From contig JBIIPZ010000012.1 of NCBI GenBank assembly GCA_044342325.1, positions 9,354-73,353 of the forward strand: a stretch of DNA of 64,000 nucleotides, in the 5' to 3' direction. The position numbers and the translations under genes were made by a program. This DNA comes from Terrimicrobiaceae bacterium. GTDB lineage: Bacteria > Verrucomicrobiota > Verrucomicrobiia > Chthoniobacterales > Terrimicrobiaceae. Positions 17,630-63,268 of the stretch are shown piece after piece; position 1 is the first letter of the stretch; the number at the start of each line of letters is the position of its first letter. The notes under the pieces were generated by a model. It was not told the origin of the DNA. It did not search any database and saw only the letters and a list, made by a program, of their open reading frames with translations.

Positions 17630-17703
17630 TGCCCTGTGGTGTAATGGTAACACAGTGCCCTTTGGAGGCATTATTCATGGTTCGAGTCCATGCGGGGCAG
17701 CCA
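17630..17703 (+). tRNA. tRNA-Gln (anticodon TTG)
   Basis: Acceptor TGCCCTG/CGGGGCA; anticodon arm GTGCC-CTTTGGA-GGCAT; T arm CATGG-TTCGAGT-CCATG; encoded CCA. Confidence 0.95.
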
Positions 17704-39226: not shown

Positions 39227-39646
39227 TTTTTTAGAGAATGGAGAATTCAGAGAGGAGAACTAATTTTGAACTATTTACACTAATGTCTTTAAGATTTTGG
39301 ATTTTAGGCGGCCGTTGTCTTTCTCGGGTTCAGGGTTCCTATGAGCGTCACAGACGAGCTGGTATCGGGGAGGGCATCCGCCCTCGGGTGCGGCCTGTGC
39401 CCGAGCAGAAGTGTTTCCACCGGACTGAGGCCGCATATTTTCCAAGCTGCCTAGCGAGGCGCTTGACGGAGCGCGTGGTCCCGAGACTTTTTGACTCTGG
39501 CACACCCTCTTCAACAAGAGTGAAAAAGGATTCTGCTTTTGGTATGAAACTTATTTCATAATCCACACCAGCTTATCCTGTAACTCCAATCATGCTGTAT
39601 AAATCTATGGATTAATCTGAAACAACCAAACAATCAGAAAATTGCT

Positions 39647-45961: not shown

Positions 45962-46097
45962 GATGCGTTAGATTCTTATATCGAAAAAATGTTCAAAAAG
46001 GAAAGGAGGAAATCGGATTTTTTGGGTAAAATGATGGGCGGCAAAATGAGTGAAACAGATGCTTCAGAGCAGCCCTCGTGCCAAGCGCAGTGACGCC

Positions 46098-46219
46098 TGT
46101 AGCGGCGACTCAGTGAGCGCCGAAGGGATGGGTAGAATCATTGATGGCAGAATGATTTTTTGGGGCCTGTAGCGGCTGTCTGTGACTGCCGTCTGGTATC
46201 GGCGTCTCTATGAGCGCCG
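46098..46219. repeat. GTAG-type REP copies (three, partly degenerate)
   Basis: tgtagcggcgactcagtgagcgccg, tgtagcggctgtctgtgactgccg, gtatcggcgtctctatgagcgccg. Confidence 0.8.
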
Positions 46220-46479
46220 AGAGTTTGACAGAATCATTGATGACAGAATGATTTTTTTGGCGATAGCAGGTGGTTTGGGAATTTTCCAAATTCTGTTAAT
46301 TCTGTCCAAAAAAGCACCACGCGGTTGGGCAGAGCGAGAGGCTCTCACGGAGGCGCGGAGACACGGAGGGGTTAGATATGTAAACCACGAATTTTTCGAA
46401 TGAACACGAATAATATCGGCAATGAAATCCTCCGCCGAGGCCGCACACAATTTGTGCAAAGTATTTTCCAAGAGCAATA

Positions 46480-46719
46480 TTATGGATTCACGAGCTCCTC
46501 GGCCGACAAGCTCCAATCCTTGGAGATGTGGAATTTTACTTTGCCGGCAAGCGTGCCGAGTTTCCGCTTCCCAGCTGGACGCGGAGGAGGAGAAAACAAA
46601 GCAACCGGTTTTCTGCTTCGCCCATAGGTGATGCAAACAGATCCACCACGGGAGACGACCTCCAAAGCTTCCGAAAAGCGTGATTTAAATTCCCCCACAG
46701 GAAGCTGAAGAGTTTCCAT
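46480..46719 (-). CDS. Phd/YefM family antitoxin (orphan)
   Basis: LPVGEFKSRFSEALEVV..G..V.IT....KPVA, RKLGTLAGKV...DW. Confidence 0.82.
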   Translation of the reverse strand: METLQLPVGEFKSRFSEALEVVSRGGSVCITYGRSRKPVALFSPPPRPAGKRKLGTLAGKVKFHISKDWSLSAEELVNP

Positions 46720-46919
46720 ATCCGGAACCAAAGCCTCTGTCGGAAAACTTGTCAAGTTGTCATGATGCGAACGGCGCTCAAGGGGGCGATCAACTCGAGA
46801 ATGATATCAATTACCCCTGAAATCCCGAACCTATAAGGGATTTGTATTGCAACATCTTCTGCAATGATTTTGCCGTCCATGATTTTGCCAGAAAAAGCCG
46901 AGAGTCGAGAGCCTACGCC

Positions 46920-46987
46920 CGGCGGTCATAGACACGCCGCTACAGGATGCACACAGCGAGCCCGGCGGTCATAGACACGCCGCTACA
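46920..46987 (-). repeat. Two tandem GTAG-type REP copies
   Basis: cggcggtcatagacacgccgctaca occurs twice. Confidence 0.85.
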
Positions 46988-47005
46988 GGAGCCGGTCGGA
47001 TGATT

Positions 47006-48886
47006 TTAACCGAAGAGGGAGCGGATTTTATTTCTTAAGAGATAGGTGGCGCAGAGAACAAAGAGGCCTGGGAGCGTCCACGGGAGGGGCTGTGGGAGAG
47101 GGATGTCGCCGACGCGGATGTTGAATTCGCTTCCATCCATGCGAGTCGTGTTGGACGTTTTAGCGATGATCCGGATTTTGTGGTAGCCGGGCGAGAGAGC
47201 CGGGATGCAGGCCTGCCAGCGTCCATCGGGAAGCTTTTGGATTTTGGCGGTGGAGTGGTCGAGGGGAGTCCACAGGGGCTGGAGGGATTGCCGAGGGAGG
47301 TCCTCTGGGGTCGGCAGGGTGCGATCGAAAGGATTTTTGTCGAAGAAGCCCTTTCGCTGCCGCTCTTCGCGTTGGATGATGAACTCGAGTGGCTCGGGAC
47401 CTTCGTAGCTCCAAGAAACGATAGCAGCGGCGGTGCGGCGGCTTGGGAAAAAAGCAGCCCAATGAAGTTCCGGCTCGAGACGGTAGGAGAAGTCCCTCGG
47501 CATGCGCTTGCGGAGTGCTTCCTGCTCTTCCTTGGTGAGAACTTTGGGAGGCGTGGGGGATGGCGAGGCGCCGGGATTGGGCGCGGGGGATGGCGAGGGT
47601 GTAGGTGCGGCAGATGGCAACTGGACATCGGCTTGCCATGAGGCTCGAAGAGGGGGCAGGCCCGTGGTCTCTGCAACCAGCACGGCCTCAGCCAAGCCCG
47701 GCGTGTCGGGAAATTTCCAGGTAGCGTTGACCGTCAAACTTTCACCCGCAGCAATGGCAAGGTTGACAGGTTGACCTTGCGCGAGTGAAAGCTCGCCATC
47801 GCCAGCGGTCCGGATAACGGCTCTGGCTGGGCCGCTGCCGGTGTTGCGGAGATTTGCAGCCATTGAAACCGTGCGACCGGGGGTCGTGATACCGAGTTGG
47901 TTTTTCCCAACGATCTCCCACTCGAGACGCGATGGAGGTGGAGGCAAATCGACGCGGATGTCGTGGTTGGCAGCTTCGTCACTGACTGTAACCAAGACAC
48001 TCTTTTCGGCAAAGGGACGGGCGGGGAGCTTAAGCGCCAGCTCGCCGGAGGATTCAGGCGGGAGCGTGATGGAGTCGGGTGCTTCGAGCGGAGGCGGGCA
48101 ATGAATGCTGATGGGGAGCGGCACGGCGGTGAGGTTTTTGATGGGAATGCGCAGTTCCTTGGCACCAATGCACTGCTCGAAGGCGGCTTTATCCGGCGCT
48201 TCGAAACGGCTCTCGCCTAGCCCTTGGAGGGAAATTTCGGGAAATGGCTTGGTGCCGGATTCGAAGACAAGGCTACCGCGTTGTGTGTCGGTGGAGACCG
48301 GATCGAAGGTGACCAGGATTTTTTTGCTCTCGCCTTCTGCAAGCACAAGGTCGGCAGAGTCAGCGATCCTCCAAGGCTCGCCGACCTTAAATCGGCCTCG
48401 TAATTTGGCGCCGCCGGAGTTCTTGATGAGGATTGGCAGGGTGCGGGATTCGCCGAGGAAAACAGAACCGAAGTCGAGTGATGCCATATCGGCTGCGAAG
48501 CGCGGTGGAGGTTCCTCGACGAGGATCGTGACCTTGGCATAGCCCCAGGCTTTTTGCGGACCGGATTTGCATTTGAAGCGGAAGGAATCCTGGGAGGAGT
48601 TTTTCTTCCCGTCGTGGGTGTAAAAGTAGGAAACCGAGGATTTGGAATTTCGTTGCGGACCGGAGAGCGAGCCGGAGCGGGGTTGGGAGAGGATTTCAAA
48701 CTTCACATCGTAGCCCTGCGGAGAGATCGCGCGGAGCGGCACTTCGCAGGTTCCTCCGCGAAGAACTTTCACGGTGACGTCGTAGACGACAGTGGGATCG
48801 ACGGGCGGAATATCGTCTTTTTTTGGTGCTGCCGAAAGGAACAAAGGGAAAAAAAAGAGAAGGAGGCAAATAATCCAGAGGCTCAT
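47006..48886 (-). CDS. Surface protein with Ig-like (Big_9 / choice-of-anchor D-like) domains, Pro-rich linker and C-terminal TM
   Basis: Signal peptide MSLWIICLLL; LDFGSVFLGESRT..I.IKNSG motif; PTPSPSP linker. The longer ORF start is a REP read-through. Confidence 0.75.
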   Translation of the reverse strand: MSLWIICLLLFFFPLFLSAAPKKDDIPPVDPTVVYDVTVKVLRGGTCEVPLRAISPQGYDVKFEILSQPRSGSLSGPQRNSKSSVSYFYTHDGKKNSSQDSFRFKCKSGPQKAWGYAKVTILVEEPPPRFAADMASLDFGSVFLGESRTLPILIKNSGGAKLRGRFKVGEPWRIADSADLVLAEGESKKILVTFDPVSTDTQRGSLVFESGTKPFPEISLQGLGESRFEAPDKAAFEQCIGAKELRIPIKNLTAVPLPISIHCPPPLEAPDSITLPPESSGELALKLPARPFAEKSVLVTVSDEAANHDIRVDLPPPPSRLEWEIVGKNQLGITTPGRTVSMAANLRNTGSGPARAVIRTAGDGELSLAQGQPVNLAIAAGESLTVNATWKFPDTPGLAEAVLVAETTGLPPLRASWQADVQLPSAAPTPSPSPAPNPGASPSPTPPKVLTKEEQEALRKRMPRDFSYRLEPELHWAAFFPSRRTAAAIVSWSYEGPEPLEFIIQREERQRKGFFDKNPFDRTLPTPEDLPRQSLQPLWTPLDHSTAKIQKLPDGRWQACIPALSPGYHKIRIIAKTSNTTRMDGSEFNIRVGDIPLPQPLPWTLPGLFVLCATYLLRNKIRSLFG

Positions 48887-48891
48887 TGTCC

Positions 48892-49115
48892 TGTAGCGGC
48901 GCTCTGTGAGCGCCGGGCACGCTCGGCGGTCATAGACCGCCGCTACAACCTGTAGCGGCGCTCTGTGAGCGCCGGGTTCGTTTTTCCTTCGGCGGTCATA
49001 GACCGCCGCTACAGAAAAACGGGCCATCGTCGTTGGACGGTCATAGACCGCCCTGTAGCGACGCTCTGTGAGCGTCGGCTCGTTTTTCCTTCGGCGGTCA
49101 TAGACCGCCGCTACA
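48892..49115. repeat. REP array downstream of RAYT (three REPINs plus one partial REP)
   Basis: Repeated tgtagcggcgctctgtgagcgccg / cggcggtcatagaccgccgctaca pairs. Confidence 0.93.
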
Positions 49116-49125
49116 GGTTTCGTCT

Positions 49126-49560
49126 TCATTTGCGATACTCCAAATCGTGAATTTCGCCTGCGTAGGGCCACTCCTCGGGGATTGCGACCAATCCGGCGCG
49201 AACGGGATTCTCACGCACATAGTCCCACTTTTGCGAATAGGACTCACCGCTGCGGAGCAGATGGTCAAAGAAACCCTTCTGCCAGTGCGGAGCATCACAT
49301 CCAAGCGAGCGCAGAGTTTTCGACAGCGTGTTCTTCAGGGATTTTACCCAGTTGGACAATGAGATTTCAACGACACTCACAAACAGGTGCAGGTGATCCG
49401 GCATGAGCACATAGCGCCCAATCCATGCGCCGTGCTGTGGCGAATTCAGACAAAATGTCCGAAACGCATCATGCACCGGCTCGCAATCAAGGATTGGTCG
49501 GCGGTTCAATGTGCAAGTAGTGATGAAATAAATTGGCGCGTCAACGAAGACATGATCCAA
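49126..49560 (-). CDS. REP-associated tyrosine transposase (RAYT/TnpA-REP, HUH Y1); start codon uncertain
   Basis: YFITTCT, YVLMPDHLH (HUH), WQKGFFDHLLR, YVRENPVRAGLV, WPY; flanked on both sides by REP arrays. Confidence 0.92.
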   Translation of the reverse strand: MDHVFVDAPIYFITTCTLNRRPILDCEPVHDAFRTFCLNSPQHGAWIGRYVLMPDHLHLFVSVVEISLSNWVKSLKNTLSKTLRSLGCDAPHWQKGFFDHLLRSGESYSQKWDYVRENPVRAGLVAIPEEWPYAGEIHDLEYRK

Positions 49561-49593
49561 GCGGCGAAGCCGCGGTTTCTTTAGCGACTGCTC

Positions 49594-49906
49594 TGTAGCG
49601 GCGTCTCTATGAGCGCCGGTTTCGTTATCTATTCGGCGGTCGCAGACGGCAGCTACAACCTGTAGCGGCTCTCTGTGAGCGCCGTGTTCGTTTTCCGTTC
49701 GGCGGTCACAGACCGCCGCTACAATGGGAGCGAATTCGTTTTCCTCCGGCGGTCGCAGACCGCCGCTACAACGGACTGGTTTGTGCTGCAGCGCCTCTGT
49801 GAGCGCCGGTGATTTTCGGCGGTCATAGACCGCCGCTACAGCCTGCATATCGCCGCTACAAACGCCGGTTTCGTTTTCCGTTCGGCGGTCGCAGACCGCC
49901 GCTACA
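49594..49906. repeat. REP array upstream of RAYT
   Basis: About eight full or partial GTAG-type REPs with a recurring ttcgttttccgtt spacer. Confidence 0.93.
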
Positions 49907-49928
49907 GGGGGGGGCGATTTGTGAGTGC

Positions 49929-50420
49929 TCACTGGGGGGCGGGTTCGACGGTGCCGTTTTGGCGGACGAGAAGGTTGCCCCTGCCGTGGGCGTTGCCGAT
50001 TTCGATGAACCATGGCATTTGCGCGTTTTTGTTGGCATTGCCGGGTTGAGCTGAAAAGGGAGTTGGTAGGTAGTGGATCAGCGGCCGGTCAGCTTCGGGG
50101 GATGATCTGAAAAGCCTAGTGATCGTGGGACATCGCCATGTTTTTTCCGAGAGGCCGAGGTCTTTTTTCGTCTGCTCAAGCCACCAGCGCTGCTCTTCAT
50201 TGGAACCTAGAGCGATTCCTTTGGGTATTTGCGGCCATCCATCTGTGGCATAACCAGAAAAGGCAGCCCTGAGGCTGCGGAGATTGTTCATGCAGACAAC
50301 CATCTCTGCTTTTGGACTGATTTTTTCTAACGCAGGATAAATCGTCGCAACAAGGATAAGCACGATGCTTACGGCCGCCAGCATCTCCAAGAGGGTGAAG
50401 GCGCGTGCGGCGCGGTGCAT
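49929..50420 (-). CDS. Prepilin-type N-terminal cleavage/methylation protein (PVC-type)
   Basis: AFTLLEML hydrophobic helix, CMNNLR, C-terminal H-x9-NG variant of H-x9-DG. Confidence 0.85.
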   Translation of the reverse strand: MHRAARAFTLLEMLAAVSIVLILVATIYPALEKISPKAEMVVCMNNLRSLRAAFSGYATDGWPQIPKGIALGSNEEQRWWLEQTKKDLGLSEKTWRCPTITRLFRSSPEADRPLIHYLPTPFSAQPGNANKNAQMPWFIEIGNAHGRGNLLVRQNGTVEPAPQ

Positions 50421-50447
50421 CGGGAGATTGTGAGAACCTCGAAAACT

Positions 50448-51164
50448 TTAAGGAACCAAGACAGAAAATTCGTTCACCGAAGGAGGTCTTACATCTGCAG
50501 TGGAAAATGTGCTGGAGGTATTCGAAAGGCGAACGCCTGAGACGGATATCGGAATGCTGACAGCATCAAGGAATGGCGTGGTGCCAGAAAAATTAAGTTG
50601 TTGAAATTGAGCTTCCCCAGACCCACTAAACTTCTGGTTGGGAAATGCATTGGAGGCTTTGCACTCAGCGTAACCATTCAAGTAAAGGGAATCGAAGTAG
50701 AGGATTTGTTCAGTAGTTTGGAACGTTGTGGTCGAGGTATTAGTGACAACGCCGTTCGATGTAGACGTTCCAAATGTGGTTACAGGAGTTTGCACACTAA
50801 TTGAGTTTTGACCTTGACCTTGAACATCTGCCTGAAAATTGACCTCCATGGTTGAAGCTTGGGAATTGTAAGATCCTTGCGAATTGCCGAGATAGGTATC
50901 CCCATCGTAGTAAATCGTGGAAACGCCTGTGGAGCCGGCACCTGTTTCGCCCGAACCAGAAGTGGTGCTGAATTGAACTGTTCCACTCAGATTCTCCCCG
51001 CGCACGACGGCGGAAAAAGTGCCGTCATTGGGAAAATAGCTGCCGTTGCTGAAAGGTCCTCCTGGAGCGCCTCCGAAGGCGCAGGCTTCAGGAGCTAAAG
51101 TGAACTGGAGCATCGCGACGAGAGAACCAATGAGCAGAGGAGCGAGTGTGGAGGTTTTTTTCAT
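50448..51164 (-). CDS. Secreted Ser/Thr/Gly-rich beta protein
   Basis: Signal peptide; GGPFSNGSYF N-terminal motif. Confidence 0.7.
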   Translation of the reverse strand: MKKTSTLAPLLIGSLVAMLQFTLAPEACAFGGAPGGPFSNGSYFPNDGTFSAVVRGENLSGTVQFSTTSGSGETGAGSTGVSTIYYDGDTYLGNSQGSYNSQASTMEVNFQADVQGQGQNSISVQTPVTTFGTSTSNGVVTNTSTTTFQTTEQILYFDSLYLNGYAECKASNAFPNQKFSGSGEAQFQQLNFSGTTPFLDAVSIPISVSGVRLSNTSSTFSTADVRPPSVNEFSVLVP

Positions 51165-51241
51165 GGTTGGGATTTGTTGATTAATAGTAAAATGAGTGTT
51201 GCGAAGTCAAAAAGAAATTGGCGATGGAGAAATTTAGCTCT

Positions 51242-52801
51242 TCAACGGACTTCCTTCATTTTGTCGATTGGGCCCAGGAGGCTGTCCAAGAATATATTGA
51301 TGACATGGCGCTTGCGGATCTTGATGTTTACGCCCACGGACATGCCGGACTGGAGGGGGATTTCCTTGTTGCGAACGACGAGGGATTGTTTGGAGAGCGA
51401 GATTTTGGCCGGGAAGCTGTAGAATTTTTTGACCTCGTTGGGAGGGAGAACATCGGAGCCGACATAGTAGACCTCGCCGACGATGTAACCGAACTCGCGC
51501 TTGGGGAAGGTGTCCACCTCGACCTCGCAGGGCATGCCGACGCGAATGAAGCCGATGTCGCGGTTTGTGATGTCCACCTTGGCGATCAACTCGCCGTTGG
51601 GCACGATGCGCAGCACAGGATCCTTGGCGGCGACCACTGTGCCGGGTTTGGTGGCCACCATTTCAAAAACAATGCCGTCCGAAAGGGACTTGATTTCGTG
51701 GCGGGTGAGGGTTTCGCGTGCAGCGGCGAGTTGGCTTTCGGCTTGGGATATGCGCTGCATGTTTTCGAGCCGGACCTTGGTGAGGTTGGCATCGATTTCG
51801 GCAATGCGTTTGCCGTTTTCTTGAATGCGAGTGTTCGTCTCCGTCTTGAAAACCGTCGGGATATTCTGGGTCTGGGCCTCGAGATTTTTGACCTGCGCGG
51901 TGGCATTGAGCCACTCGGACTGGCGGGCGAGGTAGTCGACGCGAGAGAGGTTGCCCTCAAGGTTCAGCTTGGTGAAGGCCTCGAACGCGAGTTTTTTATT
52001 CTGCTCGATTTTCCGCAATTCCGCGAGCTGCTCGCTGGAGCGGAGGTATTGCTCGGAGAGGCTGGTCAGCTCGTTGGCAAAATACTTGAGGTTGTCGAGA
52101 TCGGCCTCCAGCGTGAGTTCACGGGCAAATTCGCCTTCGACGAGTCCCTTCATCGCGGCGAGTTGCGAGGCTACGGGATCGGCCGCTCCGGCTTTGGCAG
52201 GGGCCAAATCGGATGCGAGGATGGCGGCGTGGAGTTTGCCGGTCTCATCGCGCAATCGGCGCAGGAGTTTGTTCTGCGCTTGGAGCGCAGTGCGGTTTTT
52301 CGCGAGATCGGCGATTTCCCTCGGGACGCTCTCGGGCGCGGACTCCGAAGCCACGGATTCGTTGAAGAGGCTCTCGTAAAACTCTCGTTCCATTTGCATC
52401 GAGGCCAAACGCTCTTCGAGGGATTTCACCTCGGCGGCAGCGACCTTGGAATCGAGGCGAACAAGACTCTGTCCCGCCTTCACCGAGTCACCTTCGCGGA
52501 CCATCGATTCCTCGACGACGCCGCCAACGGGGGCCTGCACATCGCGCACCGAGCCGCGTGGCTCGAGTTTGCCGGTTGCGTGGACGACCTCGTCGATCGG
52601 CGCGAGGCAGGCCCAGAGCACGGCTGCAACAAATGTGCCGATGATGGTCCACATGATAGACCGTGACCAGAAATGCGTTTGCCGCAGAACCATGGTGTCG
52701 GAGTCGGGGCGCAGCACATGGCGCAATGCAGGGACCGCCTTGATCAGGCGCTCAAAGAGCTTCCCGCCCTTTTCCAGAAATTTGTTTTGCTTCGTGTTCA
52801 T
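51242..52801 (-). CDS. HlyD family type I secretion membrane fusion protein
   Basis: TM segment, ATGKLEP, PVGGVV, coiled coil, DIGFI, FP..EFG, LQSGMSV. Confidence 0.93.
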   Translation of the reverse strand: MNTKQNKFLEKGGKLFERLIKAVPALRHVLRPDSDTMVLRQTHFWSRSIMWTIIGTFVAAVLWACLAPIDEVVHATGKLEPRGSVRDVQAPVGGVVEESMVREGDSVKAGQSLVRLDSKVAAAEVKSLEERLASMQMEREFYESLFNESVASESAPESVPREIADLAKNRTALQAQNKLLRRLRDETGKLHAAILASDLAPAKAGAADPVASQLAAMKGLVEGEFARELTLEADLDNLKYFANELTSLSEQYLRSSEQLAELRKIEQNKKLAFEAFTKLNLEGNLSRVDYLARQSEWLNATAQVKNLEAQTQNIPTVFKTETNTRIQENGKRIAEIDANLTKVRLENMQRISQAESQLAAARETLTRHEIKSLSDGIVFEMVATKPGTVVAAKDPVLRIVPNGELIAKVDITNRDIGFIRVGMPCEVEVDTFPKREFGYIVGEVYYVGSDVLPPNEVKKFYSFPAKISLSKQSLVVRNKEIPLQSGMSVGVNIKIRKRHVINIFLDSLLGPIDKMKEVR

Positions 52802-55692
52802 TCGTCCGTGCGACCTCCTGTGTAGAGCGACTGGTAGTGGCCTTTGAGTTTCATCAAATCCTCATGGCGGCCGCGCTCAATCAGAATACCGCGATCAAAA
52901 ACGAGGATGATGTCGGCGTGCTGCACCGAGCGCACACGGTGGGTGACAAAAAAGACGGTCTTGCCTTGGAATTCCTTGGCGAGATTGCGGCAGACGAGGT
53001 TTTCCGAAACGGAATCCAGTGCACTGGTGGCCTCGTCGAGGATCAACAAGCGAGGCCGCTGCAGCACGGCGCGGGCGATGGCGATACGCTGACGCTGACC
53101 GCCGGAAAGGGCGCGCCCCTGCTCGCCGACTTGGGTGTTATAGCCCTGCGGAAGACTCATAATGAAATCGTGCGCTCCGGCCACCCGCGCGGCGCGCATG
53201 ATATCATCTGGCGAGGCGTCGGGGTCACCGATGGCGATATTTGAGAAGACCGAGGAATTGAAGAGAAGACTGTCTTGAAGCACCGTCCCGATCTGCCGCC
53301 GCAGGGAATAAAGCTCGACCTTGGCGATCTCGTAGTCGTCCACAAGAATCCGGCCCGCGTCGGGATTGTAGAGGCGCGGGATGAGTTTGAGCACGGTGGA
53401 TTTTCCAGATCCGCTCTTGCCGACAACGCCGACGAATGAACCCGCCGGTATCTCGAAGGAAACATTCCGCAACTGCGGTTGTTGGCCTGGGATGTAAGCG
53501 AAGGTGATGCTGTCGAATTCCACTTTGCCGGTGATGGCAGGCATGGGGATATTGTTTGCCTCCTCGCTCTTCTGCTCTTGCGGGCTGTCAATGACATCTC
53601 CGAGTCGTTCGACCGAGAGGGCGACCTCTTGGAAATTCTGCCAACTTTGCGCGAGGCGCATGAGTGGCGTGGTGACATAGCCGGCGATGATCCGGAAGGC
53701 GATAAGCTGGCCGAGCGTCAACTCGCCCTTGATGACAAGCACCGCGCCATACCAGAGAACTGCAAGGTCACCCAAGCGGCTCAGCAGAGTGGTCGCCGAG
53801 TTCATCGCAGTGGATGTGAGAACGGCATGGAAGCCTGCGCTGACAAAGCCGGCGTAGCGTTTTTGCCACTCCCAGCGCGAGGGTTGCTCGATGTTGCCGG
53901 CCTTGAGCGTTTGGACGCCGGTGAGTGTTTCGATGAGGTGGGCCTGGGATTTGGCGCCCTCTTCGGAACGGCGGCGGATTTGAGCCTGCAGGATGGGTGC
54001 TCCCAGAAGCGTGACGCCGGTCATGAATGGAACAACCAACAAGGCGACGATCGCCAACTTCACATCGTAGAAAAACATGATCGCCATGTAGACGACGGAA
54101 AAAATGGCATCCAAACCGACCGTGAGAGCCGTTCCAGTCAAGAATTGGCGGATGTTCTCGAGCTCGTGCAGGCGGGAAGACACCTCGCCAACGGGACGGC
54201 GTTGAAAATAGCCGAGCGTGAGTTTGTAGAGGTGGTCCATGATCCGCGAACCCACAGCGAGGTCGATCCGGTTCGAGGTATCCACAAACAAATAGGTCCG
54301 AACTGCTGTGAGTGCGACCGAGGCAATGGCGATCAACACAAAAAGCACCCCGAGGACATTCAGGGTATCAATGGAATTTTGGACCAGAACCTTGTCGATG
54401 ATCACCTGCGTGAGGAGTGGATTCGCCAATCCGAGCAATTGGATAAAAAAGGAGGCGATGAAAACCTCGATCAGCACTTTCTTATGCTTGCGAATGGCAG
54501 GTAGGAACCATTTGAAACCGAATTTTCCCTTCTCCTCCTTCGGAAGCGGCCGCAGCAAGAGCAACTCGACCTCCGCCGGAAGGCGGGCCAGGAAATTGTC
54601 CACCGACAGGCGCTCCAGGCCAGTCCGAGGATTGGCAAGAACGACGCCTTTGTCGCCGGTTTGAAAAAGCACAGAGACCATGCCGTCGAGCATGAGCAGT
54701 GCGGGAGTCTCCACGCGGCCCATATTCACGACCGGGAGCTTCACAAGCTGCGCGGCGAAGCCGGACATGGTAGCGATGTTTCCGCATGTGTGCAGCGAAG
54801 GTTTGCGGTCGGCTGGAACCTCGTTCGACAAAACACGACGCGCGGCCTCCTTCGGAAATTCCTTCTCAAAAAACTTCGCCAACATCCCGAAGCAGGCAAT
54901 GACCTCCTCCAGCGGTCCGTTTTGCGTGGTGAGCACGGGATAATCGATCAGCGGGTCGAGCAAGGACTCGGCCGGCGGCAACGCAGGTGGCGCAGGCATT
55001 CCAGCTTCCTTGGGAACATCAGGAATCTCGCTGCGCTCCAAGACCCCGGTGGGAATTCCGATACGGCGCAGCGGCCCGTCAGCAGTTGTCCACCGCGTTC
55101 CGCGTGCAGCGCCCTCCGCAATCCAAAAGGTGAAGCCGTCACGGACATCCGCATTTCCAATCTCCAGCACAGCCTCTGGCAGAGCCGCTCGAACGAGATC
55201 CGGCACCTTCGAAATATCCAGGGCGCACCGCGTGAAATCCATCGACAGAAGGTTGAACAACTCGGCTGGGGTCACAGTGGATTCCACGCTTTTTTGGAGC
55301 TCAGGCGCTTCGCTGAGGAGTTCGCGCAAGCGGGCGGTCTCGACCATCAGGCACACGCAGTCCACCGCCGCTGTGGCGGCTTCGACAGGAACGCCTGAGT
55401 TGAAGGTAGCCAGCCCTGCAATACCACCAGGCCCGAGTGTTTGGAGCAGCTCGGGATGCGGGTCTCCCGCCCGAACGCCCAGCAAGCGAACGCGTCCCTC
55501 GAGCACAATAAAAACATGGCCGCTCAATTTTGCAGGAGTGATCAGCACCTGCCCGATAGTGGCGCGGGCGAGCTTGCCTGCGGAGGCGACGCGCGCAAGC
55601 CACTCCCGGGGGGCCTTGGAAAGAGGCCCATCGCCTGCGGCGATGCGGTCGGCTACCTGGCCGGCGGTGGTATCAAGCGGTTGGTCGGCCAT
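52798..55692 (-). CDS. Type I secretion ABC transporter (HlyB-like) with N-terminal cNMP-binding and C39-like domains
   Basis: FGFKWF, NPLLTQVIIDKV, GKSGSGKST, LSGGQRQR, LDEATSALD. Confidence 0.93.
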   Translation of the reverse strand: MADQPLDTTAGQVADRIAAGDGPLSKAPREWLARVASAGKLARATIGQVLITPAKLSGHVFIVLEGRVRLLGVRAGDPHPELLQTLGPGGIAGLATFNSGVPVEAATAAVDCVCLMVETARLRELLSEAPELQKSVESTVTPAELFNLLSMDFTRCALDISKVPDLVRAALPEAVLEIGNADVRDGFTFWIAEGAARGTRWTTADGPLRRIGIPTGVLERSEIPDVPKEAGMPAPPALPPAESLLDPLIDYPVLTTQNGPLEEVIACFGMLAKFFEKEFPKEAARRVLSNEVPADRKPSLHTCGNIATMSGFAAQLVKLPVVNMGRVETPALLMLDGMVSVLFQTGDKGVVLANPRTGLERLSVDNFLARLPAEVELLLLRPLPKEEKGKFGFKWFLPAIRKHKKVLIEVFIASFFIQLLGLANPLLTQVIIDKVLVQNSIDTLNVLGVLFVLIAIASVALTAVRTYLFVDTSNRIDLAVGSRIMDHLYKLTLGYFQRRPVGEVSSRLHELENIRQFLTGTALTVGLDAIFSVVYMAIMFFYDVKLAIVALLVVPFMTGVTLLGAPILQAQIRRRSEEGAKSQAHLIETLTGVQTLKAGNIEQPSRWEWQKRYAGFVSAGFHAVLTSTAMNSATTLLSRLGDLAVLWYGAVLVIKGELTLGQLIAFRIIAGYVTTPLMRLAQSWQNFQEVALSVERLGDVIDSPQEQKSEEANNIPMPAITGKVEFDSITFAYIPGQQPQLRNVSFEIPAGSFVGVVGKSGSGKSTVLKLIPRLYNPDAGRILVDDYEIAKVELYSLRRQIGTVLQDSLLFNSSVFSNIAIGDPDASPDDIMRAARVAGAHDFIMSLPQGYNTQVGEQGRALSGGQRQRIAIARAVLQRPRLLILDEATSALDSVSENLVCRNLAKEFQGKTVFFVTHRVRSVQHADIILVFDRGILIERGRHEDLMKLKGHYQSLYTGGRTDE

Positions 55693-56371
55693 GGGTGCGT
55701 TCCTCCAGCCATTGATGGCAGAGCTCCTCGATCATTTGGGATTTCATTGTTTCGTCAAATTCCACAGGCAAATGGTGGTCTACCCTCGCCACAAGAAACC
55801 ATTCTGCGACGGCGAAGGGCTTCAGCAGTTCACCAGCGCGCGCAGGCTTCAGAACGCCTGCCAACGCGGGATGCATCGCTCCGAGGGCGACGGGACCGAC
55901 TATGCCGGCCGTATAAACCTCATTCCCGCTCGCATAGGTGGGCGCGAGGTCAGCAAAGGTGGCTTCTCCCTCCTTGATACGGAACCACAACTCGCGGGCC
56001 AGCCCGGCCTCCTTGACACGGAGCAACGAATAAACAATGCGATCCAACGCGGGCTTACGGCGTTCGAAGTGTTCCTCCGCCTGTTGCTCAAAGAGGTTTT
56101 TTTTCCAGAGCGCAATCCGGCACTCGCGTTCGATGGCCGACTTCAAGCGCTCCGGTGGACAGCCAATGTAGTCCTGCGGAACCGGGAGCGAGGTCGCTGG
56201 ATCGACTTGGAATTTTTTGCAAAATCCCTGCCAGGCGGACTCCACCTCCTCAGGCTCGGGAGCAAAGCCCGCACTCGCCTCGTCCAGCAAGCGCGCCCGC
56301 AGAAGGGCCTTCCAGAGTCTGTAGGATCCGAGTTCCGCCGAGTCGATCGTTGTTCCGTCCGTTCTGTCCAT
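55673..56371 (-). CDS. PpiC-type peptidyl-prolyl isomerase associated with T1SS
   Basis: LDRIVYSLLRV...LAREL.FRI.EGEA.FADLA..Y, G.VGPV.L...HP.LA. Confidence 0.85.
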   Translation of the reverse strand: MDRTDGTTIDSAELGSYRLWKALLRARLLDEASAGFAPEPEEVESAWQGFCKKFQVDPATSLPVPQDYIGCPPERLKSAIERECRIALWKKNLFEQQAEEHFERRKPALDRIVYSLLRVKEAGLARELWFRIKEGEATFADLAPTYASGNEVYTAGIVGPVALGAMHPALAGVLKPARAGELLKPFAVAEWFLVARVDHHLPVEFDETMKSQMIEELCHQWLEERTHGRPTA

Positions 56372-56409
56372 GTCGTCTTTCAAAGTAAGGTGATCACATT
56401 ATGCCTTGT

Positions 56410-57285
56410 TCAAGGGGTCTTCAATGCCTCGCCGAGGTAGCGGTTGTGCAGATGCTGGAGCTCAAAAAAACCGGCATGCGGTGAGGCGGGTTTGTGAATG
56501 CGAAAATTTTTCATGACGCCCAGCGAGGCGGCACTCTCGAGCGGCCCGGCAAAGCTGCAGTCGCCATCGCCGAAAGTCGGCGACTCCGCCCAGCGTGCCA
56601 TTTGCGCGGCGCTCAGAAAAAAACAGCCCGAGTGCGGATTCGACCAGCGCTCGAAGGAAATTTCCTGCCCGAGAAATTCGGCGTTCAACATCCGGCGGTC
56701 ATTCACATCCTGCCAAGGCGCGGTGAAATCCGGTCTCACAGGCCCGTCGATATAGAGTTTGTGCAGAGCTTCCTTAGAAGAAATTTCGTAGCGATGGGGT
56801 AGCAACAACGCCTCATCGCCGAAAGTGCGGGTGAACCACTCGAGCTTCCTCAGAAAAAACGGATCCTGAATGAGCAAGTCATCCTCCAAGTAGCAGTAGA
56901 AATCATATTTCCCCAAGTGCGCCTTGAGCACCTGCTGGCACGCAAAACCGATCATCATGGGATCGGACTTCACCGGTTGATGATGAAACATGCTGCTGGG
57001 CACCGAGAGGCTGTTGATCAAATGCGAGTCGCCCACCGTGCAAACGGCGATATCCAGCGCGTCCGCCGCCTGGTTGTTCACTTTCAGGAGTCGGCCATTC
57101 CCCCGCCCCGGCACCGGCTCGTGGAGGCAGTAAAGAAAAGCCTGACGCGGCCCCAGACTCTCATGCAGCCCAGCGATACTCCGCGAAAGCGCCTCCGCCC
57201 GCCGCCCGCTCTCCGAACCGGTGGACCCATAAGCCCCCCCACCCTTCGGATTGTGAAAATGCGGAATCGTGACGAGGACTTTCAT
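56410..57285 (-). CDS. Conserved hypothetical protein, possible GT-A-fold glycosyltransferase
   Basis: VLVTIPH start, YCYLEDDL acidic motif, NPHSGCFFL, GPLESAA. Confidence 0.6.
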   Translation of the reverse strand: MKVLVTIPHFHNPKGGGAYGSTGSESGRRAEALSRSIAGLHESLGPRQAFLYCLHEPVPGRGNGRLLKVNNQAADALDIAVCTVGDSHLINSLSVPSSMFHHQPVKSDPMMIGFACQQVLKAHLGKYDFYCYLEDDLLIQDPFFLRKLEWFTRTFGDEALLLPHRYEISSKEALHKLYIDGPVRPDFTAPWQDVNDRRMLNAEFLGQEISFERWSNPHSGCFFLSAAQMARWAESPTFGDGDCSFAGPLESAASLGVMKNFRIHKPASPHAGFFELQHLHNRYLGEALKTP

Positions 57286-58795: not shown

Positions 58796-59078
58796 TGTAG
58801 AGGCTGTCTATGACTGCCGTTTTGTAGCCTCTCTATAAGCGCCGGGATTCGTTTTCCACTCGGCAGTCATAGACAGCCGCTACAGCGGACTGATTTGCCC
58901 TGTAGCGGCGTCTCTATGAGCGCCGGGATTTATTTCCCGTTTGACGGTCTTCCGCTCGGCCGCCAAACCGTCTGATTGCGGTTCTTCACCCCATGATTTT
59001 GCCAATGATTGAAAAAAAGTCCCGAAACCCGGGGATCCGTTTTCCATTCGGCAGTCACAGACAGCCGCTACAGCTACA
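58796..59078. repeat. REP array (GTAG type, partly degenerate)
   Basis: Five or more REP copies, including cggcagtcatagacagccgctaca variants. Confidence 0.88.
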
Positions 59079-59895
59079 GTGGCTTTATTGAATTGAGATA
59101 ATCAGCCTCCTTGAAATCCAGATTATGCGCGTTCCAATAATGCATCCATGGAATTTTGTATCCGGGAGGGTAGGCCATGAAGTGAAGGAGGAAGGTATTT
59201 TCATCCATGAAGCGCGGGTCGGTGTTGAACTCCGCCATCTCGTGGGCTTCATGATATTCGCCATGCGGATCGCGGCCTAGAACCAAGTCGCAAAAGACCG
59301 TTTGGTCGCTGCCATGGTCCCAGAGATTCGGCGGGCGTTTTTCCAGCGCGAAGCGATCCGTATCCTCCAAGATCTGCTTTGACCAAAGCGCATTTTGGAA
59401 AAAGAAGACGCCAGCATTGTAGGAAGAAATGCCTTGGGCAAAATCCTTACAAATATGCAGGGGCTTCGAGCTCGAAAGAAATGGTTCAAAGACTTTTCTG
59501 TCTTGCTTCAAAAACAGCGTGTCGGCATCCACCCACACGACTCCACGATGATCTCCCAAATGGTTTAAAAGCACCCGCGCCTTATGCCATGTCGGATGGA
59601 TTCCAGAATAAATTCCGGTTCGATAAATGTAAGCCGTGTAGTCGTGCTGCAAGCAGTAACTCAGAAGACTTTTTTCGGACTCTGCCGCATAGGAGACGAT
59701 TTCAGGCGTATAGAGGGTGCAAAGCGCAAGCGGTCTTCCTGGATTGAAGACATAATTTCCAAAAGATGAAAAAGCTTGCTTGGCGGGGAAATGACCAGCG
59801 CAATAATTGAAAAACGGCATGAGATCCACGCAGGGTTGCCATCTCTCTCGCATGCGGAGGAATAATGCTTGGGAGATTTCGGGGTTGTTTGACAT
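59074..59895 (-). CDS. Glycosyltransferase, GT34/GMA12-MNN10-like
   Basis: YCLQHDY, TWHKA, VVWVDADTLF, NAGVFF, SDQ, FLLHF. Confidence 0.8.
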   Translation of the reverse strand: MSNNPEISQALFLRMRERWQPCVDLMPFFNYCAGHFPAKQAFSSFGNYVFNPGRPLALCTLYTPEIVSYAAESEKSLLSYCLQHDYTAYIYRTGIYSGIHPTWHKARVLLNHLGDHRGVVWVDADTLFLKQDRKVFEPFLSSSKPLHICKDFAQGISSYNAGVFFFQNALWSKQILEDTDRFALEKRPPNLWDHGSDQTVFCDLVLGRDPHGEYHEAHEMAEFNTDPRFMDENTFLLHFMAYPPGYKIPWMHYWNAHNLDFKEADYLNSIKPL

Positions 59896-59907
59896 CAGAG
59901 TTTTTTG

Positions 59908-60567
59908 ATATAGGTAGGAACGAGACATTGGTTTGTCTCTTTCCCCACTCCGAACCGGACTTGCGGATCTCCCGCATCCGGCTCTCCGGTTGCGAATTTG
60001 CCGACTCCTCTGTTGCCAGAGTTTCGTCGGACGCCGGACCAGAGGCTCCGAGGACTTGCAGGATTTCCCTCCCCAGCTCTGGCTGTTCCGACGCACCACA
60101 ATAAGGCTTTGGCTTCCCCAAGGCTCGTCTGGCCGCACAGTTTTAGCTCGTTGAGCAATCGATTGTGCTTTTTAAATGGGTCCAGCTGGCCCATGTGGTT
60201 TCGCTTCCTGCCGCCCTTCGCTCCACGGGAATTACCCCGCTTCTTCGCTACTATGGCGGCTCTGACTCCTGCGCGGCCCCGTCGAAACGGGTTCCTGCCC
60301 GCGCAGGTCTCAACGCTTCCATATGACACCTTCCCTGCGTTCCCACCCCAACCATCCCCAACAGCCCGTTTCTCTCCCTTATACGAGGTTTGTGAGAGGA
60401 AACGGATGTGGCTCTGGCCACTGGCTTCGCCACTCGCTAGCAGGTCCGCCTCGGGCTGCTCCCCACCCCGTCTCACGACGACGCAGTTGCCTCCGGCGTC
60501 TCTCCCGTTGCTCGTCTCGGGATGACTCAGACTTTCACTGGTTGATTTCATATATGTGCGTTCGCAC
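59908..60567 (-). ncRNA. ORF-less group II intron inserted in a REP end
   Basis: 5' GTGCG; DIII-like GTAGCGAAGAAGCGGGGTAATTCCCGTGGAGCGAAGG; DV GAGCCGGATGCGGGAGATCCGCAAGTCCGGTTC; DVI ending CCTACCTATAT; no RT motifs. Confidence 0.9.
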
Positions 60568-60627
60568 TAGCGGCGCTCTATGAGCGCCAGGGCTTTCTTC
60601 CATCGGCGGCCGCAGACCGCCGCTACA
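60568..60627. repeat. REPIN whose terminal TG is separated by the intron
   Basis: tagcggcgctctatgagcgcc...cggcggccgcagaccgccgctaca; the missing tg lies at 59906-59907. Confidence 0.88.
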
Positions 60628-60659
60628 GGAACAGGTTTTTGTAAGCAATCGCTCATTAA

Positions 60660-61784
60660 TCAAAAGACGCTTATCAGCTCATTGGAATACGCCTCGATAT
60701 TTGCTGGGAATTTTATATCGAGCGTCTTTAGAAAATCCGCCGCTTTGGCTTTGTAATCATTAAGATTCTTATCGTGACTTTCAAACGCCCTCACCAAGGC
60801 CTCGCCGCCCGCCTGACAATCAAAATCGGGATAAAAATATCCCTGATCGCGGATGAATTCGGAATTGTGAATGAGCGGATACCCGCCGTAGAGGGCCTCG
60901 TAGTAGAGATAGTTTTGCCCATTCTCCCAATGGTGGGAAACAATGCAGTCGCCGAAATGGGCCATGTATTCATGCACGGAAAAACGCCCTTCAAAGGACG
61001 CAACCCCATGGTTCACGATGTCCAAGAACTTGGCAAACCTCACGAATCCGGGATTTTCTTTCGCTTTGAGAGTGTTACAAATTCGAATGAATTCGAACCG
61101 ATCCGGCGCTTTTCTATAAGCCTCTTCGCAAACCAGCATGGGCATGATGCAAGTTTTAACCATGCACATATTCGGCTCGAAGGAGCAAACTCGCCAGCGA
61201 GCCTTGCCGGGTTCATAGCCAAAGCGTTTGCCGCTAGGCAGGGTGGCTGCTCCTTTGTCCAAAAACTCAGGCGTCCAAAGATGGGGCACGATTTTTACAG
61301 GGGCCCGCGTGGTGATGGCAAAGTAGTCGCTGCAGCTGCGTTCGTATTCCGGAAGCGTCCAGATGGCATCATATACCTTACCGCTACATAAGCCGGCTGG
61401 AGGCAAGTTATACATCGCCCGCTCGACATCGATCACATAGTCGTTGCCGCAACGCATCCAAGCAATCCGCCCTCCTCTCTGCCGGAATTTGACAAGCCAA
61501 TCTTCCGGCACTTGGGAACTCATCTCGATGATGACATCGAGCTTTTCTAGGGCGGTGGAAAGATCGATCATTTCAACGCCCACTTGGTCGAACATCATGG
61601 AAGGATGCACCTCTTTGGCGCCACTGCCATTGACAAGAACGGCTTTTTCAACCTCCGGCGAGAGGTTGAAAAGTTGGACGAGGAAAACGCAGTTTTGGAA
61701 AATGCCATTTTCCCAAATGGATTGGTGCCCATCCCGGATATGGATGGTTACACCGACACGAAGTTTGCGATTAGGTTTAGACAT
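60660..61784 (-). CDS. DUF2827 family protein
   Basis: WENGIFQN, GNDYV, PHLW.P, FEPN, SHHWENGQNYLYYEALYGGYPLIHNS. Confidence 0.85.
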   Translation of the reverse strand: MSKPNRKLRVGVTIHIRDGHQSIWENGIFQNCVFLVQLFNLSPEVEKAVLVNGSGAKEVHPSMMFDQVGVEMIDLSTALEKLDVIIEMSSQVPEDWLVKFRQRGGRIAWMRCGNDYVIDVERAMYNLPPAGLCSGKVYDAIWTLPEYERSCSDYFAITTRAPVKIVPHLWTPEFLDKGAATLPSGKRFGYEPGKARWRVCSFEPNMCMVKTCIMPMLVCEEAYRKAPDRFEFIRICNTLKAKENPGFVRFAKFLDIVNHGVASFEGRFSVHEYMAHFGDCIVSHHWENGQNYLYYEALYGGYPLIHNSEFIRDQGYFYPDFDCQAGGEALVRAFESHDKNLNDYKAKAADFLKTLDIKFPANIEAYSNELISVF

Positions 61785-61790
61785 AGGGAT

Positions 61791-62074
61791 TGTAGCGGCT
61801 GTCTGTGACTGCCGTTTTGTAGCGGCGCTCTATGAGCGCCGGAGCGTTCTTCCAACGACGGTCATAGACCGCCGCGACAATGGACTCGTCATCCTGAAGC
61901 GGCGCTGTGTGAGCGCCGGTTTCGTTTTCCATCGGCGGTCGCAGACCGCCGCTACAATAAACTATTTTGTCTTGTAGCGGCGTCTCTATGAGCGCCGTCG
62001 ATTTTCGGCGGGCATAGACCGCCGCTACAACGGAATCGTTTTTTCGGCGGTCATAGACCGCCGCTACAGCTACA
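61791..62074. repeat. REP array between the DUF2827 paralogues
   Basis: About eight GTAG-type REP copies in mixed orientation. Confidence 0.92.
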
Positions 62075-62077
62075 ACT

Positions 62078-63214
62078 TTATTTTGAGTTGTAGACATGCA
62101 GGAGGCGCTCGGTGAAGATGCGGATGTTTTCTGGGTGCTCGGGATGGAGCGTTTTTAAAAACTCATCCGCCTTCTTTTTGTAATCCTGCCAGAACTCGGG
62201 CGATTGATTCCACGCCTCCACTAAGGCCTGGGCGCCTTCACGCGCCGAAAAGCCCGGATAGAAAATCCCCACACCGGATTGTTGCAGAAACTCGCTGTTG
62301 TGAATGAGCGGATACCCGCCATAGAGGGCGTCGTAATAGGCATAGTTCATTCCACATTCCCAGTGGTGCGCCACTACGGCGTCCATTTGATGATCCACCA
62401 TGGCGGTGGTGAATAAAACCCGTGGCTCGTAAGTGGCCTTTTGGTCTTTCGTAAGATTCAAGTTTAAGGCGAATCGGAGAAATGTCTGGTGTTCTTTGAG
62501 TTGAAACGAGTTCATCACCATCATGTAAGAAATCGCCTCGGGATTTGAACGATACGCCGCTTCACAGAGCAACATCGGCACGAGATAGCTTTTCACCACG
62601 GAGATATTCGGCTCGAAAATGGCAACACGCCAACCGCGCTTTTCACCCTGCGAAGGTTTAAAACCAAACGACTGGCCGTTTCGCTCCGCAGCTTCGATTG
62701 TCTTATCCAAAAATAATGGGGACCAAACATGAGGCATTGTCACCATCGCCTTACGGGTCAAGGTTTGCATCATCGCCGCGCCAGTCTTGGCATGATGCGC
62801 CAAACCCCAAGTTTCCTCGCGGAGCGTGGGGTCGGTGAGGTGGATTCCGGCTTGTTTCGAGGGAAATACAGCCGTTTCAGCCACCGCGTTGAAATTGTGG
62901 CCCACGCCAAAACAAATAATTTTGGCTCCTCGTGCATGAATCCGCCGCATCCATTCGTCGGGCAGGATTGCCCCCATTTCAATCAAGACATCGATTTCGT
63001 GCGTAACCTCCTGAGGTTTGACGATGGGAATCCCCAAGCCGTCGAAGCCGAGGTTGGGATTCGGCCGATCGGAGGTGCCGCCGTTCACAAACCATACTTT
63101 TCGCACGACTGGGCTTTTTTTTAACAAAAGGCCCAGCAAGGCGATATTCTGGTTGATTCCATTATTCCAGATATTCGCATTCTCGCTGGCGAAGAGTGAA
63201 ATTCCAACATTCAT
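62078..63214 (-). CDS. DUF2827 family protein, second paralogue
   Basis: WNNGINQN, PHVWSP, FEPNISVVK, HHWECGMNYAYYDALYGGYPLIHNS. Confidence 0.85.
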   Translation of the reverse strand: MNVGISLFASENANIWNNGINQNIALLGLLLKKSPVVRKVWFVNGGTSDRPNPNLGFDGLGIPIVKPQEVTHEIDVLIEMGAILPDEWMRRIHARGAKIICFGVGHNFNAVAETAVFPSKQAGIHLTDPTLREETWGLAHHAKTGAAMMQTLTRKAMVTMPHVWSPLFLDKTIEAAERNGQSFGFKPSQGEKRGWRVAIFEPNISVVKSYLVPMLLCEAAYRSNPEAISYMMVMNSFQLKEHQTFLRFALNLNLTKDQKATYEPRVLFTTAMVDHQMDAVVAHHWECGMNYAYYDALYGGYPLIHNSEFLQQSGVGIFYPGFSAREGAQALVEAWNQSPEFWQDYKKKADEFLKTLHPEHPENIRIFTERLLHVYNSK

Positions 63215-63229
63215 AACCGCTGTCCCTTG

Positions 63230-63268
63230 AAAAAAAGCCCGAGCATTTTTCAATGCTCGGGCTTTTTT
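63230..63268. terminator. Bidirectional rho-independent terminator
   Basis: aaaaaaagcccgagcatt-tttc-aatgctcgggctttttt. Confidence 0.85.

Follow-up and report, generated by a model that had tools for sequence, protein, structure and literature searches.

Intron position and architecture

The 64,000-nt stretch of contig JBIIPZ010000012.1 from a Terrimicrobiaceae bacterium, referred to here as the window, carries on its minus strand a 660-nt group II intron (59908-60567) that encodes no reverse transcriptase (RT) and interrupts a repetitive extragenic palindromic (REP) sequence. Positions 59700-60800 were read directly. In minus-strand order, the stop codon of a DUF2827 gene (60660) is followed by 33 nt, the sequence TGTAGCGGCGGTCTGCGGCCGCC, a 16-nt spacer and GGCGCTCATAGAGCGCCGCTA (60588-60568), after which the intron begins with GTGCG (60567-60563). 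Its 3′ end reads ...CCTACCTATAT at 59908, and the 3′ flank begins with CAAAAAACTCTGATG; between the intron and the ATG of a glycosyltransferase-like gene at 59895 lies CAAAAAACTCTG.

The ribozyme was identified by an Rfam scan at the gathering threshold, which covered all 64 kb and returned two matches. One was the group II domain V/domain VI (DV/DVI) model RF00029, aligned over model positions 1-77 of 77 at 59908-59986 on the minus strand with 48.0 bits against a cut-off of 40 (E 2.5e-06); the other was a tRNA at 17630-17700 on the plus strand (61.9 bits). The full RF00029 match comprises the DV helix with its catalytic triad and 2-nt bulge, followed by DVI with a bulged A, and the termini GUGCG ... 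AU conform to the group II pattern GUGYG ... AY. The 5′ splice-site consensus (60563-60567, minus strand) is kept as ..CE[RC]TY.. in translated relatives. By identity, the element at 59908-60567 is a group II intron, as an earlier note made from the sequence alone had proposed, with the same 660-nt extent.

The domains were delimited with differing degrees of support, all on the minus strand. DV (59952-59984), with 33 nt, an AGC triad and an AA bulge, and DVI (59911-59951), with a candidate branch-point A at 59915, 7 nt from the 3′ end, follow from the Rfam alignment. Domain III (DIII; 60210-60260), which the earlier note had listed as recognisable together with DV and DVI, reached only a sub-threshold score in a permissive Rfam scan of the region (RF01998, covering DII/DIII, at 60213-60291; 22.2 bits against a cut-off of 35). 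A 60-nt DIII stretch is 85.5% identical to Escherichia coli plasmid sequences, in one of which it lies directly 5′ of an annotated group II RT gene; the 66 records recovered in this plasmid search matched pieces the size of DIII or DV, none of them with a coverage of 80% or more. Domain I was placed approximately at 60320-60554, with a closing helix of intron nt 14-20 and 242-248, from a predicted fold in which exon-binding site 1 (EBS1) was forced to remain unpaired, and the Rfam D1-D4 models gave no match to it in the permissive scan. Domain II (60268-60307) is a predicted hairpin seen in the fold only. Domain IV (DIV; 59992-60204) comprises about 210 nt in the predicted fold and shows no detectable RT remnant. 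The three sense-strand frames of the intron matched neither an RT nor any other Pfam domain, even at E<=10, which agrees with the earlier statement that no RT is encoded. The DIV translation (..HNRLLNELKLCGQTSLGEA..) is retained in relatives down to 52% identity.

The interrupted REP and its repeat family

The 5′ exon ends with the REP hairpin GGCGCTC-ATA-GAGCGCC and the tail GCTA (60568-60588, minus strand), its last five bases, CGCTA, constituting intron-binding site 1 (IBS1). The last two bases of the repeat, CA (59906-59907, minus strand), stand on the other side of the intron, the C being the first base of the 3′ exon. The repeat is split as ...GAGCGCCGCTA/CA, between GCTA and CA and two bases short of its end; viewed from the opposite strand, the insertion point falls within the GTAG head of the REP. 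A partner REP in inverted orientation (TGTAGCGGCGGTCTGCGGCCGCC; 60605-60627, minus strand) forms a REP doublet with the interrupted one. In the predicted DNA fold of the restored site, the two repeats form separate 7-bp hairpins and the bases GCTA/CA remain unpaired 3′ of the second.

Joining the flanks yields CGCCGCTACA, which has 40 matches in the window at one mismatch or less, 23 of them exact, against 4.18 expected and a maximum of 11 in 100 shuffles. The word GGC[AG][GC] occupies the place of the hairpin in 29 of these matches; subtraction of a non-REP site at 13814-13823 leaves 28 intact REPs, which share the form GGCG[GC]TC-AYA-GA[GC]CGCC-GCTACA and often occur as inverted doublets. 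The repeats thus display a short hairpin with a GTAG head, many copies and frequent inverted doublets, as is expected of REPs, and the intron targets the bases that are best conserved in them. CGCTAC occurs at 45 sites in the window, 29 of which lie within REPs, with the site at 13815 counted as non-REP.

A gene for a REP-associated tyrosine transposase (RAYT) is found at 49126-49560 on the minus strand (NCBIfam NF047646, 98 bits against a cut-off of 80; also PF01797). REP arrays flank it at 48892-49115 and 49594-49906, the arrangement of a Y1 (HUH) transposase between REPs, and in the region 48870-49930 as a whole REPs are densely packed around the gene. The REPs of the window are confined to 38.4-62.1 kb, the first 38 kb being REP-free. 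A further array (61777-62097, minus strand), between DUF2827 paralogues at 60660-61784 and 62078-63253, reads as an ORF (open reading frame) of 106 codons full of VAAVYDRR/ALIERRY words, that is, a REP array posing as a gene. The earlier note had described an insertion exactly into the terminal motif of a RAYT-amplified REP, with flanks that restore the common REP end when joined; the transposase gene and the 40 matches bear this out, with the refinement that the interruption lies two bases before that end.

Relatives recovered through spurious reading frames

An open sense frame of 218-219 codons runs across the intron (59895-60551, minus strand), a length of at least 214 codons being reached by 0.65% of 2000 dinucleotide shuffles. 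The antisense strand is likewise open for 203 codons, and an antisense frame of 86 codons spans the 5′ junction. That the sense frame might be a genuine gene was considered and discarded: it has no Pfam match, the opposite strand is open as well, the related cluster P0007 shifts frame near the 3′ end, 81/120 relatives stop after DIII, and a hypervariable patch obeys base-pairing rules. Stop codons are thus scarce in the window intron; two RT-less relatives described below, L034 and L049, are open for 95 and 111 codons only.

Searches with the sense ORF returned 243 proteins at E<=0.001, of which the 120 listed are 49-98% identical and mostly encoded on contigs of 0.5-3 kb, and searches with the antisense frame returned 3 and 27 proteins. 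These proteins are translations of other intron copies: they include translated DV (GEPDAGDPQVRFG), represent both strands and diverge exactly at both splice sites. Related proteins or clusters are labelled P0001-P0147 in what follows; their flanks were read as protein translations, with nucleotides inferred from amino acids. Such ORFs provide a handle on non-coding intron copies in protein databases, and the approach may be useful elsewhere.

The family is spread over many metagenomic sources. Among the listed clusters that include the 5′ part, 113/114 carry 16 extra codons (48 nt) just 5′ of the candidate EBS1, which are missing from the window copy, at 60440-60441 on the minus strand, and from P0001. 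The latter is 98% identical to the window copy and has the same 48-nt deletion and a different 3′ flank. While 81 of the 120 listed clusters end just after DIII, 13 reach the 3′ splice site with a total length too short to accommodate an RT, and these represent at least three subgroups with different DIV.

Pairing between EBS1 and the 5′ exon

The stretch TAGCG(A) at 60439-60434 contains the proposed EBS1, UAGCG (60435-60439, minus strand; intron nt 129-133), which is complementary to exon positions -1 to -5 (CGCUA) in 5/5 Watson-Crick pairs. At this spot the 120 listed clusters have a hypervariable tripeptide with 26 variants between conserved flanks (..ASL before it, GEAC.. after it), which in the window is L-A-S, encoded by CUA GCG AGU (nt 128-136).

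The last exon bases could be read from codons in 52 ORFs whose frame stays open across the 5′ junction. With Q as junction codon (CA/G, exon -1 A), codon 38 is L (nUn) in all copies; with S (UC/G, exon -1 C), it is R (nGn) in 23/24 as tallied from the listing; P (CC/G, exon -1 C) goes with R (nGn) and W (UG/G, exon -1 G) with P or L, in all copies in both cases. Between codon 39 and the preceding exon codon the relation is one of reverse complementarity, such that A occurs with R or C, V with H, N or D, E with L or F, G with P, and L with Q.

Shuffle tests, whose statistics are inflated by the relatedness of the sequences, quantified these rules. Over 42 unique sense combinations, 203/210 pairs are possible, compared with a shuffle mean of 169.0 (sd 3.7, maximum 184; 0/2000 reach the observed value), and 35/42 combinations are pairable at all five positions, compared with an average of 11.8 and a maximum of 21. 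The antisense ORFs, 11/26 of which were skipped for want of one motif, gave 78/80 possible pairs against 69.4 (maximum 76; 0/1000 shuffles). In these data second codon positions alone are informative, the others being saturated by degeneracy. An unbiased scan of every exon base against the positions of the first 100 codons placed exon -4 with nt 132 at the top (47/52 against 29.0, z 8.1), followed by exon -1 with nt 129 (51/52 against 37.1, z 5.9), and revealed no second patch. Pairing to -7 in some relatives is a weak hint (31/42 against 26.5), and neither mutual-information nor pairing scans of the translated relatives gave a signal for EBS2.

The complementarity of UAGCG to the exon end, together with covariation rules that would be hard to explain otherwise, identifies it as EBS1. 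The earlier note had made the same assignment and had drawn the segment as the loop of a CTGC-TAGCGA-GTGG hairpin. The loop is upheld by the covariation and the stem is weak: it contains two G.U pairs, is absent from the minimum-free-energy fold and varies at its inner pair position in relatives. At the other splice site, all copies read as DNA begin their 3′ exon with C, whose pairing to EBS3 is assumed. We infer that the intron can splice, in which case the predicted ligated-exon junction would be ...CGCCGCTA/CAAAAAAC.

Distant relatives and the search for an RT

A genome scan for the DV pattern returned at least 121 loci, and none of those listed is a close copy of the intron. Three of them, L034, L049 and L052, have a 33-nt DV nearly identical to that of the window. 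L034 and L049 are RT-less introns in metagenome-assembled genomes (MAGs) of Bryobacterales, whereas L052, in a Holophagales MAG, is an RT-encoding intron whose intron-encoded protein (IEP) contains RVT_1 and GIIM and lacks an En domain. The closest solved relatives of this IEP are class IIC RTs (7uim, 2.1e-57; 6ar1, 9.9e-56), compared with TeI4h at 1.4e-40 and LtrA at 9.6e-34.

All three have, immediately 5′ of a GG.GAAG.C motif, a loop complementary to their own 5′ exon end, a placement that corresponds to UAGCG before GUGGCGAAGCC in the window (five Watson-Crick pairs with CGCUA) and lends further support to the EBS1 proposed in the earlier note. L034 pairs CGACU with AGUCG (five Watson-Crick pairs), L049 UGAGAA with UUCUCA (six), and L052 UGUCAC with GUGGCA (five and one G.U). 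The register across the three rests on the shared motif, MAFFT alignment of domains I-III having misplaced the EBS1 region. L034 (4348-5081) interrupts a long, near-perfect palindrome (27+12 bp; 4217-4347 and 5082-5096) within its 3′ arm, and no further copy of this palindrome was found in the L034 sequence searched.

Two side observations concern these loci. In L052 (minus strand, ORF 3-1493), the RT frame remains open through DV to the contig end, and the translated DV, EPDARDPQVRF, is close to the EPDAGDPQVRF of the spurious ORF of the window intron. Another DV-pattern locus, L062, on a Sedimentisphaerales chromosome, comprises two intron copies (2046-2078 and 5001-5033) 2955 nt apart, both with D1D4-6 at 115.9 bits, RF00029 at 55.5 bits and the same 70 bases after DV.

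Recurrence at REPs and re-targeting

Antisense reads across the 5′ junction, with a slash marking the splice site, were compared among loci. The window reads T/SGAL followed by a stop, P0126 reads T/SGVSMSAG...GGHRPPLQR...VIDRRYS and P0128 T/SGVSMTAG...; the corresponding reads are T/SGVTMSAE in P0138, T/SGGIRPP in P0131 and A/SGVSVTVAAN in P0140. Five-residue words of P0126 and P0128 are identical to translations of the window's own REPs, P0126 contains two further REPs, and the distal flanks of both differ mutually and from the window. Within this REP family, an identical position is thus occupied at no fewer than three loci (at least the window, P0126 and P0128), and probably also in P0131, P0138 and P0140. 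With P0126 and P0128 at this position and their distal flanks different, REP insertion is recurrent. Neither of the two has lost the 48-nt segment. The sample disfavours REP sites, as most REP variants give a TGA five codons into the antisense frame and the sense frame meets TA/G.

Many other relatives combine different EBS1 loops with different 5′ exons and represent re-targeted members. Some non-REP exons recur with different distal flanks, namely ..VSTRPRRPC[PS]/ in five clusters and ..AHRRD[AG]LCP/ in two. The 5′ exon end ..TAAHRRDALCP of the sense-frame clusters P0027/P0030 recurs on the opposite strand about 25 codons upstream of the junction in P0127, which suggests, and does not prove, targets that are repeated and inverted in the manner of inverted doublets. 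The earlier idea of REP targeting holds in part: insertion into REPs recurs, as P0126 and P0128 indicate, and, given the many other EBS1 loops and exons, REPs are at most a possible general or exclusive target. The copies at non-REP sites, which the earlier note had named as evidence that would count against targeting, are re-targeted members in which EBS1 changed together with the exon.

Genomic neighbourhood

The upstream DUF2827 gene (60660-61784; Pfam PF10933, E 4.8e-150) and the downstream GT34-like glycosyltransferase gene (59074-59895; PF05637, 24.1 bits against a cut-off of 23), whose ATG lies 13 nt after the intron, are both on the minus strand, as is the intron. The surroundings include a secretion and glycosylation gene cluster (38624-57285) with a 2104-residue RTX-repeat protein (39647-45961), several glycosyltransferases, an ABC transporter with an N-terminal cNMP-binding domain (52798-55692) and an HlyD-type protein (51242-52801).

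Comparison with known systems

In behaviour, the intron comes closest to the TeI3 introns of Thermosynechococcus elongatus, ORF-less elements that "driver" IEPs mobilise in trans (Mohr, Ghanem and Lambowitz 2010, PMC2882425). Like the present family, they are RT-less, keep good EBS/IBS pairing at many sites, have diverged in target specificity and include numerous ORF-less forms. In the window intron, too, an RT ORF is absent while EBS/IBS pairing is kept at several sites in its family. Unlike TeI3 introns, which retain RT ORF remnants, it shows none of the kind expected around a DIV deletion (no Pfam match at E<=10). RT-encoding parents reside in the same genome for TeI3, whereas none was found here among the 46 long window ORFs or through the long-protein search, and the present family extends over many metagenomic sources at 49-98% identity and has a REP as target.

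Class IIC introns have a DV triad that departs from AGC, typically CGC. In target layout they are nonetheless the closest system: their insertion sites follow a stem-loop, that of a terminator or of attC (Toor et al. 2006, PMC1702495; Zimmerly and Semper 2015, PMC4424553), and pair through an IBS1-EBS1 of 3-4 bp without EBS2 (PMC1702495). The window intron resembles them in its stem-loop at the IBS2 position, the 7-bp REP hairpin ending at -5, in the short IBS1 just 3′ of the stem, in the absence of an EBS2 signal and in its intergenic insertion. It differs in its AGC triad, the CGC form being given for some introns (PMC4424553), in a strongly covarying EBS1 of 5 bp rather than 3-4 bp, in a domain I that no Rfam D1-D4 model matches, and in the lack of an RT, the En-less type included, all known IIC introns being retroelement components (PMC1702495). 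The earlier conclusion that an AGC triad excludes a terminator-targeting IIC intron is right as regards class membership and was drawn too quickly, given that a hairpin followed by a 5-nt IBS1 is the IIC target layout.

REPs are also targeted by insertion sequences, and a group II intron of Pseudomonas putida KT2440 has 2/9 copies associated with REPs (Tobes and Pareja 2006, PMC1525189). All these elements use REPs as multi-copy intergenic landing sites. They are DNA transposons or, in the latter case, an RT-encoding intron with a minority association, whereas here the guide loop of an RT-less ribozyme complements the REP tail. A literature search, with most subscription papers outside its reach, found no description of an RT-less group II intron with an EBS1 matching a REP tail; in keeping with the earlier note, whose author was aware of none, a table row in PMC1525189 was all that the search brought up on intron-REP association.

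Proposed mechanism and alternative explanations

We assign a probability of about 0.7 to the reading that the element is an RT-less intron of a large and diversified family that entered the single-stranded tail of a REP hairpin through reverse splicing. The copy would have arisen by retrohoming or retrotransposition, its EBS1 (UAGCG) pairing with CGCUA at the exon end, five bases that complement the conserved GTAG(CG) at the head of the REP. With so short a pairing (5+1 bp) and no detectable EBS2, the intron probably also draws on the REP hairpin immediately 5′ of IBS1 to recognise its target, much as IIC introns draw on terminator hairpins. Lying in the sense strand between co-oriented genes of the glycosyltransferase cluster, the intron would be transcribed and, if active, spliced out, which would restore the REP doublet in the mRNA. 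Mobility would depend on an RT supplied in trans.

Several observations weigh against this reading. BLASTN found no second copy in the 64-kb window, whose 28 intact REPs are all unoccupied, and no RT was encountered among the 46 long window ORFs scanned; nor were long proteins sharing the DV-DVI translation found, which is weak evidence. Deprived of the 48-nt segment, the window copy may be impaired. Some relatives, such as P0121, have the same EBS1 codons and a non-REP exon beyond GCTA, while P0003 and P0119 mispair at -1 and five others at -3 or -4. As to the hairpin, none adjoins IBS1 in L049 and L052, and a weak, insensitive test of hairpin potential in 40 back-translated 5′ exons gave a mean longest stem of 10.6 against 9.3, with 10.7 in the best shuffle. 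Finally, the protein sample carries a bias of its own: ORF calling requires an open frame, and the TA/G junction of a REP site closes the sense frame.

Part of this evidence would suit an immobile relic, that is, a past insertion which is now capable of splicing only or dead, and whose association with the REP is historical. The missing segment of 113/114 related clusters, the failure to find an RT among the 46 ORFs and the single copy among 29 window REPs all fit this view, as does the general loss of retromobility reported for bacterial introns without IEPs (PMC4424553). We nevertheless regard it as unlikely. The deleted form is present at two or more loci (at least the window and P0001, 98% identical with a different 3′ flank), which argues that it has moved; the EBS1-IBS1 match is perfect (5/5); DV, DVI and the 5′ end are intact; and ORF-less introns can exceed their parents in mobility (Mohr et al. 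2010, PMC2882425). Somewhat less probable still is a structure-directed, IIC-like element, for which the REP DNA hairpin would be the main determinant and EBS1 would merely fine-tune the site, the lineage then being an AGC-bearing relative of class C. Such an element would account for a hairpin at the IBS2 position with IBS1 in a 4-nt tail, for the lack of an EBS2 signal in the scans of relatives, for the position of L034 inside the 3′ arm of its 27+12 bp palindrome, and for the affinity of the En-less L052 IEP with IIC RTs (7uim 2.1e-57 and 6ar1 9.9e-56 versus TeI4h 1.4e-40). It sits poorly with the AGC triad, with L049 and L052, which lack an adjacent hairpin, with the weak outcome of the hairpin-potential test, and with an EBS1-IBS1 pairing that covaries strongly over 5 bp, beyond the 3-4 bp given for IIC (PMC1702495).

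A chance landing, in which an EBS1 that happened to read UAGCG struck one of many CGCTAC sites, appears very improbable. With 29/45 such sites in REPs, sequence alone would often lead there, and one occupied REP has been seen directly as DNA; on the other hand, P0126 and P0128, and probably P0131, P0138 and P0140 as well, have the intron at this very position of the REP, the targeted bases are the most conserved of the REP, and the explanation can barely be told apart from REP targeting by sequence. Our preferred account remains a reverse-spliced insertion at the REP tail, in which mobility through a trans-acting RT and the role of the hairpin in target recognition are the parts that we infer. 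A broader version is held more tentatively, as a possibility that we would not yet favour: that of a long-lived, widespread RT-less lineage specialised on REP/REPIN-type tails, which it reads with a fast-evolving short EBS1 and the adjacent hairpin.

Significance

Bacterial ORF-less group II introns have been called rare and considered to have lost retromobility, and three target specificities are listed for the group in a 2015 review (Zimmerly and Semper, PMC4424553). In the present family, hundreds of database entries and 26 guide-loop variants, each fitting its own exon, read as the signature of continuing mobility, and at least one branch repeatedly inserts into the REP end that RAYT recognises. 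If confirmed, these findings would point to a trans-acting RT still to be found, and they would provide natural material on how a short EBS1 and a DNA hairpin yield specificity. Should the specialisation on REP tails prove true, it would add a fourth strategy to the three by which bacterial group II introns choose their targets (homing sites, terminators and attC), and a second layer of parasitism on RAYT-amplified repeats. REPs themselves would, on confirmation, gain a new role as landing pads for ribozyme retroelements.

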